Below, one piece after another: positions 2,121 to 42,944 of a stretch of DNA of 64,000 nucleotides (the first letter of the stretch is position 1; every line of letters begins with the position of its first letter). The translations under genes and the position numbers were made by a program. The notes beneath the pieces were generated by a model, which was not told where the DNA came from, searched no databases, and was given only the letters and a program-made list of their open reading frames with translations. The DNA is from Escherichia coli (GTDB lineage: Bacteria > Pseudomonadota > Gammaproteobacteria > Enterobacterales > Enterobacteriaceae): NCBI RefSeq assembly GCF_030013595.1, contig NZ_CP122768.1; one strand, written 5' to 3'.

Positions 2121-5100
2121 TCAGCTGATACTGATGCCTGCGGTGGCTTTCTTCATCACCACAACCAGCAAATCGCTGATACTTGCTGTGGGATACCAGT
2201 TATTTACCAGCCATGCTGACACCGAAAACTCCAGTGTCATGTGACCGTGACCGGCAGGCATATCAATAACACCACTGTAAATCAGCGTATTATCCAGCGC
2301 GGTACGGTTATAAATTTCAGCACCGTTTTTCCGTACTATCAGACGGCATGAGGAGTAAATATCAGTATGCTCTTTCTCATGTTTAGCGCCGCTGAATGCC
2401 ACCGCCGGAATAACAATCTGCCGGTCAAACGGCTGATCGTCATAAACCCTGACGGTGATGGTCCCTGATGGCCACCGTTCCGGTGCACGGGAGTCCCGGG
2501 GGAAAGCTTTGCCCACTGTTTTAACGAGATCGCCTTCAATCTGGTTCGCGGACAGTTTTCCCAGAACCCGACAGTTCTCGTTAATCGTGACGTTGTTGAG
2601 CGTCCCGGAGTTCGCATTCACGTTACCGCTGATATCGGCATTTTTCGCCGTCAGCCGCCCGTCCGGTGTCAGGGAAAATGCCGGTGGATTTCCGCCGCTG
2701 GTAATGGTGGGAGCCGTCAGGCGTTTCAGGAACACGTCGTTCATGAATATCTGATCGCCCTGACCAACAAACATCGGCTTTGTGTTGCCATTCGCAGGAT
2801 TAATCATCGCAATCCGGTCAGCAGCCAGAAGCACCTGACTCTGCATACCTGCTGGCGTATTCTCAATACCGGCTCCGATACCCGCAATATAAAGGCGTCC
2901 GTCCTTCATCTGCTGCAGTTTCACGGCCCACATGCTGTTCAGGTTATTATTTGTATCAACCTGAACTTTCTGTATCTGCTGGATTGCCGCGCTCTGATTT
3001 TCCAGTTTCTTATTGACGGTCTGTGTGATTTCATTGCTGACATCCGTAATGGACGTCCTGATTTCAGCCAGGTCAGGCGCAAGCTGATCGTTATCAATCT
3101 GCGTCCACAGCTCCTGAGCCAGATGGGTTTTCCCTATCTCGCCTTTGAAAAAATCCAGATAGCCGGATGCGTCATCACTCGGCTGACCGACAGCCTCCAC
3201 GAATGCCGATTTGCCAACAGTGTTCACACTGCGAACGTAAAAATAATAATCATGGCCCGGCTTAATATTGATACTGGCAGCTATCCAGTACAGCGCCGTA
3301 CCAAGATAGCGCGCTGTGGTTTCAACCTGCCTGATATCCGCAATCCGCTTTTCCGAGAACCAGAACTCAAACTGTACCGTCGGATCATAAACGGCAAGAT
3401 GCGGCGTGGCGGTTATCTGAAAATAGCCCGGCGTCAGCTCAATCCGCGACGGTGCTGCCGGTGCGGCAATCCGGAACGATACCGATGCCGGATCGCCCTG
3501 CTGTCCCCACGCATTTACCGCCCGGACTGTCAGCCTGTAGTTCCCCAGCGCCAGCTGCCTGAAGCGGTATGTGGTTTCCGTCGTCCGGGCCGTGCTGACC
3601 AGCCGCTCACTGCCGTCATCGGCGGCCACGGTCAGGCGAAGCATAAAGCTCACACCCTTCACCACCTTCGGCGTGTCCCAGCGCGCCAGCACCTGATACT
3701 CCCCACTGTCTGCGGTGACTTCTGCGGTCAGGTGCTGCACCGCTGGCGGCGTGACACCATTCACCGTGCCGCTCTGGTCGCCGTCAAAGTGCGCCCCGTT
3801 ATCCACGATGGCTTCTTTCTCCGGTACATGCTGCACGGCAGTGATGGCATACGTGCCGTCATCGTTCTCACGGATACTCACACAGCGGAACAGGCGCTGG
3901 CGCAACGTCGGCAGCTTCAGCCCCCACACGCTGTATTCTGCAACGCCGTCAGGAACACGGCTCACTTTCACCTTCACACCGTCGGTGACGGACTGAACCT
4001 CCACGCTGACCGGATTGCCACTTCCGTCAACCAGGCTTATCAGCGTGGTACCGGAGGATGGCAGCGTGATTTCACGGTCGAGCGTCAGCGTCCGGGTCTG
4101 GCTGTTCACCGCCAGCACGCGCCCGCCGGTGCTGATACCGGCATAGTCATCATCGCAGATTTCAATGACATCGCCCGGCACATGGCGAAGCCCTTCTGCG
4201 CCCACGCTGAAATCCACGGTCTGCGTTTCCAGCAGTTCCGTTTTAATCAGCCACAGCCCGGCGCGGTGTGCCTGCCCCCGGCTGGTACAGCCAAAGGCAT
4301 CCATCTTCGTAACATTACGACCGTAACGGGCAATGGCCTGCGTATCTTCAACAAGCTCTGTCGCCGTCTCCCAGCCGTTATCCGGGTCAATCCAGTTCAC
4401 CTCAACGGCATTATGGCGGTCCTTCAGGGCGCTGAAGCTGTAGCGGAACGGCGCGCCATCATCCGGCATCACCACATTACTGCGGTTATAGGTCCACACC
4501 TTATCCGACGGTCGGTCCTGCACGAACGTCAGCGTCTGCCCGTTCCATACCGGCATACAGCGCATCGCCGAGCAGAAATCGCTGAGCACATCCCACGCCT
4601 TACGTTGTGTGGTCAGCCAGGCATTACAGGTGATGCGCGGCTCCGTGCCGCCAAAACCGTCCGGCACCGACTGGTCGCAGTACTGGCCGATGACATACAG
4701 CGCCCATTTATCCACATCTGCCGCACCAAGACGTTTCCCCATGCCGTAGCGCGGATGGGTCAGCATATCCCACAGACACCAGGCCATGTTGTTGCTGTAT
4801 GCTGGCTTAAACGTTCCATCCCAGATACCGCTGTATTGCCGCGTCTGCGGGTTATAGTTCGACGGCACCTGCAGAATGCGCCCGCGCAGATGATAATTAC
4901 GGCTCACCTGCTGGCTGCCGAACTGCTCCGAGTCCACCTGCACGCCGACCAGTGCCGTGTTCGGGTAGCACTGTTTCACATCTATAATTTCGGTGTATGA
5001 CGACCAGAGCGTTTTGTTCTGCAGCTGGTCTGTGGTGCTGTCCGGCGTCATCCTGCGCATCCGGATACTGAACGGGCGCGGCGGCAGGTTATCCACCACC

Positions 5101-5600
5101 ACCGAGGCCAGATACTGCGAGGTGGTTTTGCCCTTAATGGTGATGTCTTTTTCCGTCACCCAGCCACCGTTACGTTGTATCTGAACCAGCAGGCGGACTT
5201 CCGATGGATTCCTGTCACCCTTTGAGGTGGTTTCCACCAGTGCCTGCACACCGAAGGTAAAGCGCAGTCGGTCGATGTTTGCCGACGTGATGGCGCGGGT
5301 GATCGGCGTGTCGTATTTCACTTCCGTACCCAGCACCGTCTCGGAGCCGGAGGATTCAAATCCCTCCGGCGGAGTCTGCTCCTGCTCACCAGCCCGGAAC
5401 ACCACCGTGACACCGGCGATGTTGGTATTCCCCTCACTGTCCAGCACCGGCGTACTGTTCAGCAGCACGCTTTTTAATCCATCCACCGGACCTTCAATCG
5501 GCCCTTCACTGATGGCATCAATCACACTCAGCAACTGCGTGGATTTCAGGTTGTCCTTCGCTTCGCGCGGGGTATGCCCCTTACTGCTGCCTTTACCCAT
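2121..5600 (-). CDS. J: tail tip host specificity protein J
   Basis: 1159-aa ORF, ATG start, λ gene order (downstream of I), λ J-like sequence. Confidence 0.9.
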
Positions 5601-5671
5601 TCGTCACGCTCCATAAACGACAAAACCGCCCGCAGGCGGTTTCACATAAAACATTTTTCATCAGCGACCAA

Positions 5672-6331
5672 TCACCACAACCTGACCACCATCACCTTCA
5701 TCTGCTGTGCTGATCTCCTGAGATACCACCCGCGACCCCACACGCATTTCACCGTACAGAACGGGCAGGACATTGCCCTGGGCAACCATATTATCCAGTG
5801 AAGAAAAATAGGTGTTCTGTTTGCCGTTATCCGTTGTCTGTGTGCGGGGGTTTTGGGTTTAGGGGCCAGCATCTGCGCCACACCACCGAGCACCATACTG
5901 GCACCGAGAGAAAACAGGATACCGGTCATACCACCGGCCCCAATGGCTGCCCCCCATGCTGCAAGGGTGGCTCCGGCAGTAAAGAATGATCCGGCAATGG
6001 CGGCAGCCCCCAGAACAATCTGGAATACGCCCCCTGACTTGGCCCCGGCGACTCTGGGAACAATATGAATCACAGCGCCGTCAGGCAGAGTCTCATGTAA
6101 CTGCGCCGTTAACCCGGACGTGCTGACGTCCCGCCCGGCAATCCGTACCTGATACCAGCCGTCGCTCAGTTTCTGACGAAACGCCGGGAGCTGTGTGGCC
6201 AGTGCGCGGATGGCTTCAGCCCCCGTTTTCACACGAAGGTCGATGCGGCGGCCAAATCGTTGCAAATCCCCGTAAAGGCAGATGCGTGCCATTCCCGGTG
6301 ACGCCAGAGGGAGTGTGTGCGTCGCTGCCAT
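5672..6331 (-). CDS. I: tail assembly protein I; last ~60 codons read out of frame (apparent frameshift)
   Basis: First ~158 residues match λ gpI; tracked ORF ends in W/C-rich junk (…VMVVRLW) while the neighbouring frame encodes a clean …GDGGQVVVIGR tail ending at ~5661. Confidence 0.7.
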   Translation of the reverse strand: MAATHTLPLASPGMARICLYGDLQRFGRRIDLRVKTGAEAIRALATQLPAFRQKLSDGWYQVRIAGRDVSTSGLTAQLHETLPDGAVIHIVPRVAGAKSGGVFQIVLGAAAIAGSFFTAGATLAAWGAAIGAGGMTGILFSLGASMVLGGVAQMLAPKPKTPAHRQRITANRTPIFLHWIIWLPRAMSCPFCTVKCVWGRGWYLRRSAQQMKVMVVRLW

Positions 6332-6972
6332 TTGTCGGTGTACCTCTCTCGTTTGCTCAGTTGTTCAGGAATATGGTGCAGCAGCTCGCTGTCACCACAG
6401 TAAATGGCGGCATGATTCGGCACCGATGAACCAAAACAGCACAGCAGCACATCGCCCGGCTGCGCCGCTGACAACGGCACCTGATACAGCCCTGTGGCCT
6501 CCAGATTATCCAGATAGAGATTCTGACCGTTACGCCACCAGTCATCCTCGCGATGAAAATCCGGCATCTCAATCCCCGCCAGATGGTAAGCATCCCGGAA
6601 CAGCGTGTAACAGTCCGTCACCCCGTGCTCAAAGCGCCGCCCGGTGAGATGCGGCACACAGCGGAACTTGTGAATCGCCCCCCGGCAGACCAGCCACCAC
6701 GGCAAATCACTCTGCACCTGCAGCCGCCGGTCAGCCTCACTCAGCCAGGGCAGACCACCGGGATGACTGTGGACCAGTGCCACAATCTCACCCTGCATCT
6801 CTGCCTGCAGCCAGTCCTCCGGAGCCATCCGGAAATAATCCTCCGGCTCACCGGAAATATTCACGCAGGGAAAATATCTTTCCCCCTCCGGCGCTCTCAC
6901 CACGAAGCCGCACGACTCCGCTGGCGCACATCGCCGGGCGTGCGCCAGAATCGCTGATTCTGTCTCTGTCAT
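6229..6972 (-). CDS. K: tail tip assembly protein K (JAB/MPN + NlpC/P60 domains)
   Basis: HSHPGG…S..D JAMM-like motif; start placed at MTETES (track start minus 42 nt); alternative start at 6828 would give the 199-aa form. Confidence 0.75.
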   Translation of the reverse strand: MTETESAILAHARRCAPAESCGFVVRAPEGERYFPCVNISGEPEDYFRMAPEDWLQAEMQGEIVALVHSHPGGLPWLSEADRRLQVQSDLPWWLVCRGAIHKFRCVPHLTGRRFEHGVTDCYTLFRDAYHLAGIEMPDFHREDDWWRNGQNLYLDNLEATGLYQVPLSAAQPGDVLLCCFGSSVPNHAAIYCGDSELLHHIPEQLSKRERYTDKWQRRTHSLWRHREWHASAFTGICNDLAAASTFV

Positions 6973-6976
6973 GGGA

Positions 6977-7675
6977 TTACTGCGAAAGTTTGTTAATGGA
7001 AAGGAAGCCGCCAAAGTTGCCGACGTTATTGCGAAACTTACAGCCGCTCAGGCATTTGCTGCATTTATCCTTCGTGATATCGGACGTCGGCTGGTCATAT
7101 TCATCCGCGACTGCCGGACCGTGATAACCGCACTCATCACCGCGATAGGTCCAGGTGCAGGTGTTGGCCAGCATGATACGTCCCGGAAAAACAGCGCCAT
7201 CCGTTTCCGTCGGCGTGGACAGTACAAAGGAGGCACTCACCGCGCTCAGTTCGCTGCACTGCTCGATGCGCCAGCGGCTGATCACCTCCTGCTCCGGATC
7301 GGCGTCACTGTTTCCGTTGACGAAGTTCACCGCATCCAGAAAACGGGCGTAAACCTTACGCCGGACCACCGTTCCGCCGACCAGACTCTGCAGATCTTCC
7401 GCCATCCCGGTGACCATACCGTACAGGTTAGAAACCGTCAGCGTGGGGCGCGTACTGGTGCCTTTGCCATTCAGTTCAAAACCACTCCCCTGAATGGGAT
7501 ACGGCTGATACTGTCGCCCCTGCCAGGTGACCGGCACACCTTTTTCGTTCTGCTCATTACAGAAAAAATAACGTTCTCCACCGACCTCTGTCAGGTCGAT
7601 TTCCCAGAGCACCACGCTGGCCGACTGCTCCGCACGGGTGCATTCATTCAGTGTTTCCTGCCGGATATCCTGCAT
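6977..7675 (-). CDS. L: tail tip protein L
   Basis: 232 aa, λ gene order and size. Confidence 0.9.
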   Translation of the reverse strand: MQDIRQETLNECTRAEQSASVVLWEIDLTEVGGERYFFCNEQNEKGVPVTWQGRQYQPYPIQGSGFELNGKGTSTRPTLTVSNLYGMVTGMAEDLQSLVGGTVVRRKVYARFLDAVNFVNGNSDADPEQEVISRWRIEQCSELSAVSASFVLSTPTETDGAVFPGRIMLANTCTWTYRGDECGYHGPAVADEYDQPTSDITKDKCSKCLSGCKFRNNVGNFGGFLSINKLSQ

Positions 7676-8004: not shown

Positions 8005-10562
8005 CGTCCACCTCCGGAGAACAGTCCACCATCACGCATCTGTGTCTGAATTTCATCACGGGCACCCTTGCGGGCCATGTCATACACCGCCTTCAGAGCA
8101 GCCGGACCTATCTGCCCGTTCGTGCCGTCGTTGTTAATCACCACATGGTTATTCTGCTCAAACGTCCCGGACGCCTGCGACCGGCTGTCAGCCAGACTGC
8201 CCGGTGTACCGACATAACCACCGGTGGCATAGCCGCGCATCAGCCGGTAGAGATTCCCCACGCCAATCCGGCTGGTTGCCTCCTTTGTGAAGACAAATTC
8301 ACCACGGTGAACAATCCCCGCTGGCTCATATTTGCCGCCGGTTCCCGTAAATCCTCCGGTTGCAAAATGGAATTTCGCCGCAGCGGCCTGAATGGCTGTA
8401 CCGCCTGACGCGGATGCGCCGCCACCAACAGCCCCGCCAATAGCGCTGCCGATACTCCCGACAATCCCCACCATTGCCTGCTTAAGCAGAATTTCTGTCA
8501 TCATGGACAGCACGGAACGGGTGAAGCTGCGCCAGTTCTGCTCACTGCCGGTCAGCATCGCCGCCATATTCTGTGCAATACCATCAAAGGTCTGCGTGGC
8601 TGCACTTTTTACCTGCGACATACTGTCCGTGGCGCTCTCTTCCCACTCACTCCAGCCGGACTTCAGGCCTGCCATCCAGCTCCCGCGAAGCTGGTCTTCA
8701 GCCGCCCAGGTCTTTTTCTGCTCTGACATGACGTTATTCAGCGCCAGCGGATTATCGCCATACTGTTCCTTCAGGCGCTGTTCCGTGGCTTCCCGTTCTG
8801 CCTGCCGGTCAGTCAGCCCCCGGCTTTTCGCATCAATGGCGGCCCGTTTTGCCCGTTGCTGCTGTGCGAATTTATCCGCCTGCTGCGCCAGCGCGTTCAG
8901 GCGCTCCTGATACGTAACCTTGTCGCCAAGTGCAGCCAGCTGGAGTTTGTACTCCAGCGTCTCATCTTTATGCGCCAGCAGGGATTTCTCCTGTGCAGAC
9001 AGCTGGCGACGTTGCGCCGCCTCCTCCAGTACCGCGAACTGACTCTCCGCCTTCCACAAATCCCGGCGCTGCTGGCTGATTTTCTCATTTGCTCCGGCAT
9101 GCTTCTCCAGCGTCCGGAGTTCAGCCTGAAGCGTCAGCAGGGCAGCATGAGCACTGTCTTCCTGACGATCGCCCGCAGACACCTTCACGCCGGACTGTTT
9201 CGGCTTTTTCAGCGTCGCTTCATAGTCCTTTTTCGCCGCCGCCATCAGCGTGTTGTAATCTGCCTGCAGAATTTTCCCGTCCTTCAGTGCCTTGTTCAGT
9301 TCTTCCTGACGGGCGGTATATTTCTCCAGCGGCGTCTGCAGCCGTTCGTAAGCTTTCTGCGCCTCTTCGGTATATTTCAGCCGTGACGCTTCAGTATCGC
9401 TCTGCTGCTGCGCATTTTTGTCCTGTTGACTCTGCTGTTCAGCCTTCTTTCTCGCGGCTTCAAGCGCAAGACGGGCCTTTTCACGATCATCCCAGTAACG
9501 CGCCCGCGCTTCATCGTTAACAAAATAATCATCCTTGCGCAGACTCCAGATGTCGTCCGCTTTCTTAAACGCAGCCTCTGCCTTAATCAGCATCTCCTGA
9601 GCGGTATCAGGACGACCAATATCCAGCACCGCATCCCACATGGATTTGAATGCCCGCGCTGTCCTGTCTGCCCAGGTCTCCAGCGTACCCATGTTCTCTT
9701 TCAGGCGGCGGGTCTGGTCATCAAACCCTTTCGTCGCGGCCTCGTTCGCCGCCTGCAATGCCCCGGCTTCATCGCCGGAACGCTGCAACTGAGCAACATA
9801 CGCAATCTGCTCCGCCGTCACGTTATGGAACTGGCGTGCCATCGCTGTCAGCCCTGACGTCGGGTCTGTGGTCAGCTTCCCGAAGGCTTCAGCGACCTTG
9901 TCCACCTCCACGCCGGATGCAGAGGAGAAACGCGCCACACTCTGGCTGATGGATGCAATCTGAGCCTCACCGCTTACTCCCGCCTTAACCAGTGCGCTGA
10001 GTGACTCGCTGGTCTGGTTAAACGTCAGCCCTGCCGCCTGCCCGGCTCTGGACAGGACCAGCATACGATCTGCCGTCAGACCCGACTGATTGCCGGAAAG
10101 GACCAGCGTTTTGTTGAAATCGGACAGGGTTGAGTTGCCCTGATACCAGGCATACGCCAGCGCACCGGTCGCCACCGCCAGCGAGGTGGCCCCGACCATC
10201 GGCAGGGTGATCGCACCGGCAAGCCCCCTGAACATGGGGATCATCCCGCCGAAGGAGTCCTTCACCTGACCACCCTGTTGCAGCAGGATCAGCCACGGAC
10301 TTTGCCCGCCTGCAAGCTGCGTGGCCACGTCGGTGAACTGCGCAGGCAGCATACGCATGGCAGCTTTATACTGCCCGACGGAAATCCCCGCTTTCTGTGC
10401 AGCCAGCGCCTGTCGGCTCAGCGACTGTTCAACGACTGCCGCTGTTTTTTTCGCATCACTTTCCGTACCGGAAAAATGACGCCTGACTCTGGCCATCTGC
10501 TCGTCAAATCTGGCCGCATCCAGACTTAAATCAACGACCAGATCGCCTACCGGTTCAGCCAT
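8001..10562 (-). CDS. H: tail tape measure protein H
   Basis: 853 aa, coiled-coil rich, λ position and length. Confidence 0.9.
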   Translation of the reverse strand: MAEPVGDLVVDLSLDAARFDEQMARVRRHFSGTESDAKKTAAVVEQSLSRQALAAQKAGISVGQYKAAMRMLPAQFTDVATQLAGGQSPWLILLQQGGQVKDSFGGMIPMFRGLAGAITLPMVGATSLAVATGALAYAWYQGNSTLSDFNKTLVLSGNQSGLTADRMLVLSRAGQAAGLTFNQTSESLSALVKAGVSGEAQIASISQSVARFSSASGVEVDKVAEAFGKLTTDPTSGLTAMARQFHNVTAEQIAYVAQLQRSGDEAGALQAANEAATKGFDDQTRRLKENMGTLETWADRTARAFKSMWDAVLDIGRPDTAQEMLIKAEAAFKKADDIWSLRKDDYFVNDEARARYWDDREKARLALEAARKKAEQQSQQDKNAQQQSDTEASRLKYTEEAQKAYERLQTPLEKYTARQEELNKALKDGKILQADYNTLMAAAKKDYEATLKKPKQSGVKVSAGDRQEDSAHAALLTLQAELRTLEKHAGANEKISQQRRDLWKAESQFAVLEEAAQRRQLSAQEKSLLAHKDETLEYKLQLAALGDKVTYQERLNALAQQADKFAQQQRAKRAAIDAKSRGLTDRQAEREATEQRLKEQYGDNPLALNNVMSEQKKTWAAEDQLRGSWMAGLKSGWSEWEESATDSMSQVKSAATQTFDGIAQNMAAMLTGSEQNWRSFTRSVLSMMTEILLKQAMVGIVGSIGSAIGGAVGGGASASGGTAIQAAAAKFHFATGGFTGTGGKYEPAGIVHRGEFVFTKEATSRIGVGNLYRLMRGYATGGYVGTPGSLADSRSQASGTFEQNNHVVINNDGTNGQIGPAALKAVYDMARKGARDEIQTQMRDGGLFSGGGR

Positions 10563-10989
10563 ACCGGACTCCTCCTGCGATCCCTTCTGATACTGTCATC
10601 AGCATTACGTCATCCTCCGTCATGTCCGCCACATCCGGGGAAACGGGGATAACTTCATTCACGTCCGGGCCAAAGCGGACGCCTCCGGCAAGCCCTGCCG
10701 CTTTCTGCATCAGCACATCATCTTCAGGCTCTTCGTCAGCCTCACGCCGGTTCAGCAGACTGAAATCCAGCGGATGCATATCCGGATCGCTGAAAAACAG
10801 GCTGAGCACGGTGTACGTCAGCCCGGAAAAGTGCATATCCAGCAGAACATCATGAAAATAATGGGTACTGTAAAAGCGGTGCCAGTCGGCATACTCCGTG
10901 GATGACATCCCGGCAAGCATGGCACGCCAGTCGGGTCGCCCCATCTCGCGCGCCAGTTTCAGGGCAAAGCTCAGCTCACCGTCGAACAC
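10555..10989 (-). CDS. T: tail assembly chaperone T reading frame (made as gpG-T fusion by -1 frameshift)
   Basis: 144-codon frame overlapping 3' end of G; slippery heptamer at the overlap. Confidence 0.8.
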   Translation of the reverse strand: MFDGELSFALKLAREMGRPDWRAMLAGMSSTEYADWHRFYSTHYFHDVLLDMHFSGLTYTVLSLFFSDPDMHPLDFSLLNRREADEEPEDDVLMQKAAGLAGGVRFGPDVNEVIPVSPDVADMTEDDVMLMTVSEGIAGGVRYG

Positions 10990-11393
10990 TTTCCCGCAGA
11001 AACAGGCTCTGCAGGCCCGGCGTCCTCTGCCTGTTCAGGGGCATCATTCACCACAAACTCATACATACCGGACAGCCGGTACACCACGTTTTCAGCATGA
11101 GAAATTGCCTCTGTGGGCCAGGTGGTAAGCACTTCCTGCTCAATCTGTTTAACGGCTTCATTCATGGAAGGCTGCTTTGTCTTCTGCGGATGGTTATGCC
11201 ACAGGGACATAGCCACCACAAAAGCACCGGTTCTGATGGCGTCTTCCACAGTAAACTTCCGGTTGCTGTCTGACTCCGCCTGTTCTGCCTGCCGTTTCAT
11301 CAGGGCGAGATGCTCAATACGCTGCAGGGCTGACAGTTCAGAAAGCGTGACGGTCACGCCGTTATGTTCAAATGATTCGGTTTTCAGGAACAT
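10971..11393 (-). CDS. G: tail assembly chaperone G
   Basis: 140 aa, λ order and size. Confidence 0.85.
   Translation of the reverse strand: MFLKTESFEHNGVTVTLSELSALQRIEHLALMKRQAEQAESDSNRKFTVEDAIRTGAFVVAMSLWHNHPQKTKQPSMNEAVKQIEQEVLTTWPTEAISHAENVVYRLSGMYEFVVNDAPEQAEDAGPAEPVSAGKCSTVS
10989..10995 (-). other. G-T programmed -1 frameshift slippery site (GGGAAAG)
   Basis: Heptamer GGGAAAG on minus strand at the G/T overlap. Confidence 0.6.
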
Positions 11394-38837: not shown

Positions 38838-39056
38838 ATGTACTTGACACTTCAGGAGTGGAACGCTCGCCAGCGACGCCCAAGAAGCCTTGAAACAGTT
38901 CGTCGATGGGTGCGCGAATGCAGGATATTCCCTCCTCCGGTTAAGGATGGAAGAGAATATCTGTTCCACGAATCAGCGGTAAAGGTTGACTTAAATCGAC
39001 CAGTAACAGGTAGCCTTTTGAAGAGGATCAGAAATGGGAAGAAGGCGAAGTCATGA
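38838..39056 (+). CDS. xis: excisionase Xis
   Basis: 72 aa λ Xis-like (MYLTLQEWNARQRRPRSLETVRRW…). Confidence 0.9.
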   Translation: MYLTLQEWNARQRRPRSLETVRRWVRECRIFPPPVKDGREYLFHESAVKVDLNRPVTGSLLKRIRNGKKAKS

Positions 39057-40104
39057 GCGCCGGGATTTACCCCCTAACCTTTATATAAGAAACAATGGAT
39101 ATTACTGCTACAGGGACCCAAGGACGGGTAAAGAGTTTGGATTAGGCAGAGACAGGCGAATCGCAATCACTGAAGCCATACAGGCCAACATTGAGTTATT
39201 TTCAGGACACAAACACAAGCCTCTGACAGCGAGAATCAACAGTGATAATTCCGTTACGTTACATTCATGGCTTGATCGCTACGAAAAAATCCTGGCCAGC
39301 AGAGGAATCAAGCAGAAGACACTCATAAATTACATGAGCAAAATTAAAGCAATAAGGAGGGGTCTGCCTGATGCTCCACTTGAAGACATCACCACAAAAG
39401 AAATTGCGGCAATGCTCAATGGATACATAGACGAGGGCAAGGCGGCGTCAGCCAAGTTAATCAGATCAACACTGAGCGATGCATTCCGAGAGGCAATAGC
39501 TGAAGGCCATATAACAACAAACCCTGTCGCTGCCACTCGCGCAGCAAAATCAGAGGTAAGGAGATCAAGACTTACGGCTGACGAATACCTGAAAATTTAT
39601 CAAGCAGCAGAATCATCACCATGTTGGCTCAGACTTGCAATGGAACTGGCTGTTGTTACCGGGCAACGAGTTGGTGATTTATGCGAAATGAAGTGGTCTG
39701 ATATCGTAGATGGATATCTTTATGTCGAGCAAAGCAAAACAGGCGTAAAAATTGCCATCCCAACAACATTGCATGTTGATGCTCTCGGGATATCAATGAA
39801 GGAAACACTTGATAAATGCAAAGAGATTCTTGGCGGAGAAACCATAATTGCATCTACTCGTCGTGAACCGCTTTCATCCGGCACAGTATCAAGGTATTTT
39901 ATGCGCGCACGAAAAGCATCAGGTCTTTCCTTCGAAGGGGATCCGCCTACCTTTCACGAGTTGCGCAGTTTGTCTGCAAGACTCTATGAGAAGCAGATAA
40001 GCGATAAGTTTGCTCAACATCTTCTCGGGCATAAGTCGGACACCATGGCATCACAGTATCGTGATGACAGAGGCAGGGAGTGGGACAAAATTGAAATCAA
40101 ATAA
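39034..40104 (+). CDS. int: tyrosine integrase Int
   Basis: 356 aa λ Int-like with C-terminal R…HxxR…Y catalytic region. Confidence 0.9.
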   Translation: MGRRRSHERRDLPPNLYIRNNGYYCYRDPRTGKEFGLGRDRRIAITEAIQANIELFSGHKHKPLTARINSDNSVTLHSWLDRYEKILASRGIKQKTLINYMSKIKAIRRGLPDAPLEDITTKEIAAMLNGYIDEGKAASAKLIRSTLSDAFREAIAEGHITTNPVAATRAAKSEVRRSRLTADEYLKIYQAAESSPCWLRLAMELAVVTGQRVGDLCEMKWSDIVDGYLYVEQSKTGVKIAIPTTLHVDALGISMKETLDKCKEILGGETIIASTRREPLSSGTVSRYFMRARKASGLSFEGDPPTFHELRSLSARLYEKQISDKFAQHLLGHKSDTMASQYRDDRGREWDKIEIK

Positions 40105-40177: not shown

Positions 40178-40192
40178 TTAGTATAAAAAAGC
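40178..40192. other. attL: attL core (15-bp GCTTTTTTATACTAA, reverse orientation) at prophage/chromosome junction
   Basis: ttagtataaaaaagc flanked by λ P'-arm sequence on the int side and attB-like CCTGC on the ybhC side. Confidence 0.8.
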
Positions 40193-41552: not shown

Positions 41553-42309
<757 letters not shown>

Positions 42310-42413
42310 ATCAGCATACTTGTCCTTAGCCTTCTGCAGTGACAGCTGGTAGTACAGCGTGCTTCTGGCCAGCCCTGCAGCCTTTAACAGGTCAGACTGG
42401 CAGTGTCCGCACC

Positions 42414-42944
42414 TCAGGCTCCGGATGACTTTCGTTTTTTCTCCAGCTCCTGGCGCTTTTTTTCCAGGAGATGCTCCTGCATGGCTTTCAGATATGCATT
42501 TTCTGCGCGAAGATAACGCAGCTCATTCTTCATCTCTTCCGGCGTCATGTTTGCCTCGTTTTCATGGGTATCATCAGAACGGGTCATGCTTTTCTCCTTC
42601 CTGCGCCTGATAAAGGCCTCATTACCAGATTTGCGGTAGCCTTTTATCCAGTTTTTAACCGTGTTGTGGCTGGGAATGTTAAACCGGGCAGCTACCCGGG
42701 GTAGAGACTCAGAATGCCCGAGAGCATAAAGAACCACGCAAAGTTTATCTTCAGGAGAATAGCTACGCTTGTGTCTGCAATCCAGTGCACGAGGACCGTG
42801 AAGAAGAAAAAGATTAATCCAGTGTGAGAGGCTGGTGTGAGAAAGTTGAAAGAGTTTTGCCGTAGAAATGATGCCTGCATGACCAGCCAGGTAATGATTT
42901 ACAGCGGCAAGTTTTACTTCAAATGAATGTTTCATAAACTGCAC
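42414..42944 (-). CDS. IS3-family transposase OrfA (HTH + leucine zipper); A-run slippery site near its 3' end for OrfAB fusion
   Basis: 176 aa; GAAAAAAAG-type slippery run at ~42420-42450. Confidence 0.8.
   Translation of the reverse strand: MQFMKHSFEVKLAAVNHYLAGHAGIISTAKLFQLSHTSLSHWINLFLLHGPRALDCRHKRSYSPEDKLCVVLYALGHSESLPRVAARFNIPSHNTVKNWIKGYRKSGNEAFIRRRKEKSMTRSDDTHENEANMTPEEMKNELRYLRAENAYLKAMQEHLLEKKRQELEKKRKSSGA

Follow-up and report, generated by a model that had tools for sequence, protein, structure and literature searches.

The tail tip gene I of a lambda-like Escherichia coli prophage is out of frame at a cytosine tract in its assembled sequence

The window, by which we mean the whole stretch of 64,000 nucleotides of E. 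coli contig NZ_CP122768.1 that was analysed, carries a lambda-like prophage whose tail-tip genes are arranged in the order L-K-I-J, all on the minus strand, as in the annotated homologous loci. The features of this region are the following.

6977-7675, minus strand: gene L, 232 aa, intact
6229-6972, minus strand: gene K, intact, for tail tip assembly protein K (C40-family peptidase), overlapping the start of gene I at its 3' end
5661-6331, minus strand: gene I (tail tip assembly / insertion protein gpI) in its entire extent, with an ATG of lambda type at 6331, the canonical stop at 5661-5663 and a 1-nt deletion
5672-6331, minus strand: the open reading frame as written, 219 aa, made of gpI residues 1-162 and 57 out-of-frame residues rich in W and C
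5876-5880, minus strand: approximate recombination junction in gene I, lambda-like upstream, with an mEp332 / strain-20-like allele bearing the C tract downstream
5846-5850, minus strand: C5 homopolymer (plus strand GGGGG), from which the base is missing; the tract is C6 in intact alleles of the same context
5661-5845, minus strand: remainder of gene I on its 3' side, now in the -1 frame with respect to the start codon, encoding gpI residues 163-223 and otherwise undamaged
2121-5600, minus strand: gene J, intact; its product of 1159 aa (central tail fibre / host specificity protein) is the structural partner of the gpI C-terminus

The first 158 residues encoded by gene I are identical to those of lambda gpI (158/158, 100%), which is specified from the same position in the L-K-I-J cluster. 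Past residue 158 the minus strand reads AAAACCCCCGCACA, including the C5 tract, and the protein passes from ...MLAPKPKTP into AHRQRITANRTPIFLHWIIWLPRAMSCPFCTVKC... before ending in ...APKPKTPAHRQRITANRTPIFLHWIIWLPRAMSCPFCTVKCVWGRGWYLRRSAQQMKVMVVRLW. The first residue changed by the shift is 163; the 57 out-of-frame residues take the place of residues 163-223, and translation terminates 11 nt ahead of the normal stop. The neighbouring frame is open as far as that stop and encodes ...QTTDNGKQNTYFSSLDNMVAQGNVLPVLYGEMRVGSRVVSQEISTADEGDGGQVVVIGR. A preliminary description, made from the sequence alone, had reported a lambda-like frame of about 158 residues continuing as W/C-rich sequence to 5672 and a protein-like adjacent frame ending at about 5661, and both frames are found where it had placed them. 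It had further proposed that one nucleotide restored near a C run at about 5840-5857 would give 223 codons, the size of lambda gpI. The run lies exactly at 5846-5850, the re-insertion of one C yields 672 nt (223 codons and a stop), and the restored protein is identical to lambda gpI at 220 of its 223 positions (62 of 65 in the C-terminal part).

The annotated start of the gene varies between sources. The start given by PGAP to gene I homologues is a GTG that overlaps the stop of K (window position 6232, 190 aa), and the one annotated in lambda is an ATG 100 nt upstream, inside K (window position 6331, 223 aa). With the PGAP start the Lambda_tail_I domain would be truncated, its Pfam match beginning at residue 14. 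A further open reading frame of 42 codons (5661-5789, beginning MVAQGNV) in the 3' part was considered as a separate unit of translation; it does not contain the plug described below, and no convincing ribosome-binding site was seen by eye.

The remainder of the prophage has the dimensions of lambda. Lambda-like lengths were found for the head genes (Nu1 181 aa, A 641, B 533) and for the tail genes (Z 192, U 131, G 140, T 144, H 853, L 232, J 1159 aa), and int (356 aa), exo (226), bet (261), O (299), P (233) and Q (207) are of lambda size. The slippery heptamer of lambda G/GT, GGGAAAG, is present at 10989-10995 (minus strand), within the overlap of the G (10971-11393) and T (10555-10989) frames, which indicates that the known programmed -1 frameshift of the operon is intact. 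The lambda att core TTAGTATAAAAAAGC occurs at 40178-40192, next to int (39034-40104), with ybhC beyond, and the prophage is thus integrated at lambda attB, between ybhB and ybhC. Between ybhC and ybhJ lies IS1397 (41587-42944), an element of the IS3 family with two ORFs joined by programmed frameshift, and its placement is the same in the near-identical pig isolate HCP5S3_I2. The host DNA of the window differs from that of strain HCP5S3_I2 by 8 substitutions and no indel over 23,827 nt, and no other broken gene was found among about 60 in the 64 kb, the host genes and the other late genes being of expected length. The lambda-like lengths of the other late genes, the lack of indels in the host DNA and the undamaged 3' part of gene I together point to a single recent lesion (or artefact) and not to general decay of the prophage. 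The earlier suggestion of a decaying prophage is consequently not retained.

The comparison with other alleles locates the missing base. Against lambda, MB30 and other lambda-type alleles, the window displays five substitutions and the 1-nt gap within 25 nt (GCC CCT AAA CCC AAA AC- CCC CGC in the window, GCA CCG AAA GCC AGA ACT CCC CGT in the lambda type), and relative to lambda itself the gap corresponds to a lost T in ACT-CCC-CGT. This cluster of substitutions marks a natural allele different from that of lambda, the intact form of which reads AAA ACC CCC CGC and contains C6. The C6 tract is present in each of the 26 contigs that hold this context (18 viral ones from IMG/VR, 8 from metagenomes), every one of which encodes the canonical C-terminus, and the protein is nearly invariant despite 3-6% divergence of the DNA. 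Among complete E. coli genomes, the C6-type allele was counted in about 1,133 records (those matching a C6 69-mer at 95% or more) and C5 in only one; for the identical 110-nt haplotype the figures are 276 records with C6 against 1 with C5. The nearest relatives of window positions 5300-5878 among complete E. coli genomes are strain 20 and PSS-08-2 (99.7%), which differ from the window by one substitution and the extra C, and in which gene I is annotated as intact. The out-of-frame 3' part of the gene in the window is identical to the intact allele of strain 20 except for the missing C. A scan of one genome per species gave no match to the C5/C6 context. Because intact alleles of the same context, nearest relatives included, have C6, the lesion is best described, at the level of sequence comparison, as a shortening of C6 to C5 in a haplotype that is intact in its closest known relatives. 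The preliminary description had attributed the shift to the loss of a single base at the C run, by mutation or by homopolymer error; the alignments to lambda, to the mEp332 type and to the nearest E. coli alleles bear out this loss and place it in C6, and functional homologues do not share the frame of the window.

The gene itself is a recombinant. Its 5' part (window 5876-6200, minus strand) encodes the same protein as lambda, and from about 5875 the 3' part matches the mEp332 / strain-20 allele, which makes the gene a mosaic. In the mEp332-type gene I the central part diverges strongly, by as many as 58 differences per 100 nt.

The position of the shift relative to the known architecture of gpI indicates what would be lost. 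The Pfam domain Lambda_tail_I (PF06805; residues 14-97, E = 2e-28) lies upstream of the shift and is identical to that of lambda. The best match of the gene I product among solved structures is 8iyk_I, 'Tail tip assembly protein I', and the phmmer alignment of the ORF as written to this lambda gpI chain ends at residue 165. Similarly, the ORF as written reaches position 155 of 203 in the PHROG tail-assembly profile phrog_32, whereas the restored gpI reaches position 202. No NCBIfam model matches gpI, either intact or frameshifted. In cryo-EM structures of lambda, a trimer of gpI is located inside the tail tip (PMC11101478, PMC10721106), with residues resolved from 135 to 223 (PMC10721106) or from 101 onward (PMC11101478). 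A plug made up of residues 159-175 closes the tube below the tape-measure protein's C-terminus, and the beta-strands that follow, up to residue 223, thread the hub domains of gpJ by beta-sheet augmentation (PMC11101478, PMC10721106). The hydrophobic helices H1/H2 correspond approximately to residues 101-155 (PMC11101478) and are kept in the window, where residues 1-158 are those of lambda. The C-terminal plug and beta-strands are present in the same frame only after one C is added; the frameshifted gpI is thus predicted to lose most of the plug and all of the gpJ-binding strands, which lambda gpI possesses in frame (PDB 8IYK, 8IYL, 8K35, 8XCG). Considering that the features upstream of residue 163 are present and that the frame is lost from this residue, the locus can be regarded as the gpI gene in a disrupted form. 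Another profile, phrog_28576 (399 positions, 'unknown function'), aligns through the out-of-frame tail of the frameshifted protein as far as profile position 399, with an equally good score for the frameshifted and the restored gpI; it may have been built in part from K-I read-through or frameshifted ORFs.

The same C6-to-C5 change was found in two other records. In E. coli 19A14 (NZ_CP147046.1, 1688641-1689182), gene I is locus WAZ55_RS08010, which PGAP describes as 'tail assembly protein, frameshifted' and treats as a pseudogene. The local allele is that of the window, the tail operon is otherwise intact and gpJ is of equal length. However, the 19A14 prophage occupies the ydfJ/Qin site and has a different tape measure and head module. 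Since both the prophage and the downstream flanking haplotype differ from those of the window, the C5 event is independent. Over 50 kb of the 19A14 genome no gene other than gene I is frameshifted, an observation consistent with a genuine hotspot of mutation. The second record is that of phage mEp332 (GenBank PV340541.1, 34044-34673), in which the product of gene I (XSB41054.1, 209 aa) bears the ordinary annotation 'tail tip assembly protein I', with no flag. Its C5 tract is identical to that of the window and its out-of-frame tail differs at one residue, but the central part of the gene is divergent. It is known that mEp332 forms plaques, and in 2012 its counts of DNase-protected genomes agreed with plaque counts (PMC3442831). 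Given that the phage is plaque-forming, the C5 of PV340541.1 must be an error, a mutation of the sequenced lysogen, or a tolerated change. The record has Brenes and Laub 2025 (Cell Host Microbe) as its source paper; its sequence begins with int, in the order of a prophage, and for this reason may come from a lysogen. The annotation of gene I in mEp332 probably needs correcting. A C5 shared by descent between the window and mEp332 was considered, as this record first looked closest over window positions 5300-5878 (99.3%, no gap; the rest at most 97.4%). It was abandoned on account of the closer C6 relatives (99.7%) in complete E. coli genomes, which make an independent origin more parsimonious. 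The same C5 has thus appeared independently in three places, namely the window, 19A14 and the record of mEp332, which makes the C6 tract a recurrent hotspot, whether of mutation or of sequencing error.

The frameshifted protein itself was not encountered in public collections. When its out-of-frame tail was compared with 5.8 billion clusters in a word-indexed search, it was not retrieved, and exact look-ups of four start variants found none in a collection of about 15 billion proteins. Searches with the out-of-frame sequence returned only other fragments of frameshifted gene I, artefact-looking in appearance. One of these public frameshifts (P0001, 43 member sequences) is situated at GCCCAGGGC, which contains the Dcm site CCAGG, and among the fragments P0001, P0003, P0007 and P0010 there are compensating pairs of shifts at the C tract and at GCCCAGGGC. 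Judged from the sequences, this pattern resembles long-read errors at homopolymers or methylation motifs.

We consider it probable that the deletion is real, one C having been lost from C6 in an otherwise intact lambda-like prophage, and we infer that the base is missing from the DNA rather than from the assembly only. This proposition is supported by the near-identity of the restored protein to lambda gpI, the C6 relatives, a clean assembly and the integrity of the other late genes. It can be hypothesised that replication slippage reduced C6 to C5 at 5846-5850 and that translation of gene I would then shift after codon 162. The resulting gpI would retain the Lambda_tail_I domain and the two hydrophobic helices and would be deprived of residues 163-223. 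Upon induction, the prophage would fill heads but would not make functional tail tips, a tail-defective phenotype that is deduced from the structures. Infectious particles would then be formed only by reversion of C5 to C6, by recombination, or by complementation with the gene I of another resident lambdoid prophage; the median number of gene I copies in E. coli genomes is 2. A comparable case is the stf frameshift of laboratory lambda, likewise a single-base change that inactivates a lambdoid tail gene (PMC10721106). However, stf is dispensable for plaque formation, while gpI is a structural component of the tail tip, and the expected phenotype here is therefore a loss of infectivity.

The principal alternative is that the DNA has C6 and an intact gene I of 223 codons, one C having been dropped in base-calling or consensus; we regard this as a credible possibility, if not the probable one. 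The change is of one base in the length of a homopolymer, a classic site of sequencing error, and the 3' part of gene I is that of an intact allele save for this base, the absence of further decay being what an artefact would also predict. The presence of C5 in the record of mEp332, a plaque-forming phage that was not tail-defective in 2012, suggests that the base can be dropped by sequencing. Other public frameshifts of gene I, with the Dcm-site shift and the compensating pairs mentioned above, are typical of long-read errors, and the absence of the frameshifted protein among about 15 billion proteins would mean that the C5 allele is not established in nature. Against this, several broken genes would normally be expected over 64 kb from an error-prone long-read assembly, and here none of the about 60 other genes is broken and no indel separates 23.8 kb from a near-identical genome. 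The latter comparison is nevertheless powerless for this type of tract, since the host part contains no G/C run of six or more.

It is very unlikely, in our opinion, that the C5 tract is real and tolerated, gpI being supplied by a -1 slip of the ribosome on C_CCC, by polymerase slippage or by frequent reversion, or the tract serving as an on/off switch of tail production. Several observations are compatible with such a role: three copies of gpI suffice per virion, a -1 shift does restore the frame, tRNA-Pro in the P site could re-pair perfectly one base back on CCCCC, C5 stands in the record of a viable phage, and it has arisen at least three times. Slippage on the tract would imply the junction peptide KTPRTQTTDNGK. 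However, the zero frame (CCT AAA CCC AAA ACC CCC GCA) contains no X_XXY_YYZ heptamer, which leaves a single-tRNA slip on C_CCC as the one possibility. For the 111 nt that follow downstream, the folding energy was -27.6 kcal/mol, compared with a mean of -26.8 for shuffled sequences (z = -0.22), and there was no Rfam match at E values up to 1. A tract of five C is too short for efficient transcriptional slippage. The arrangement in two frames is not conserved, a single frame being found in the 26 contigs and the about 1,130 E. coli records. As for a contingency locus, C5 occurs in one of these records and in none of the contigs, and such a near-invariant tract length is the opposite of what either a recoding site or a contingency locus would display. 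Programmed frameshifting at gene I was rejected on these grounds. The G/GT site (GGGAAAG) likewise concerns a tail gene of this operon and a -1 shift, but it has a conserved slippery heptamer in the right frame.

Finally, that there is no frameshift at all, the W/C-rich tail being the natural C-terminus of a variant gpI as the annotation of the 209-aa product in PV340541.1 would have it, is extremely improbable and is refuted by the identity of the restored frame to lambda, by the arrest of the 8iyk_I and phrog_32 matches at the shift, by the canonical C-terminus that all in-frame homologues encode nearly invariantly across divergent DNA, and by the flag that PGAP places on the same allele in 19A14.

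The lesion described here is an ordinary homopolymer frameshift in a prophage gene, and it does not call for a new mechanism. If the deletion is real, the strain harbours a lambda-like prophage complete except for one base, which would give DNA-filled heads and few or no infectious particles; this would bear on the prediction of prophage inducibility and transmissibility, and gene I would call for annotation as a pseudogene. An artefact, on the other hand, would point to one particular C6 tract, within a prophage gene very common in E. coli, that pipelines can miscall, and PV340541.1 of mEp332 may contain the same miscall with no flag. If C5 were both real and functional enough, the tract would crudely throttle or switch the production of tails by lambdoid prophages, which would explain the 'broken' gene I in the record of a plaque-forming phage.
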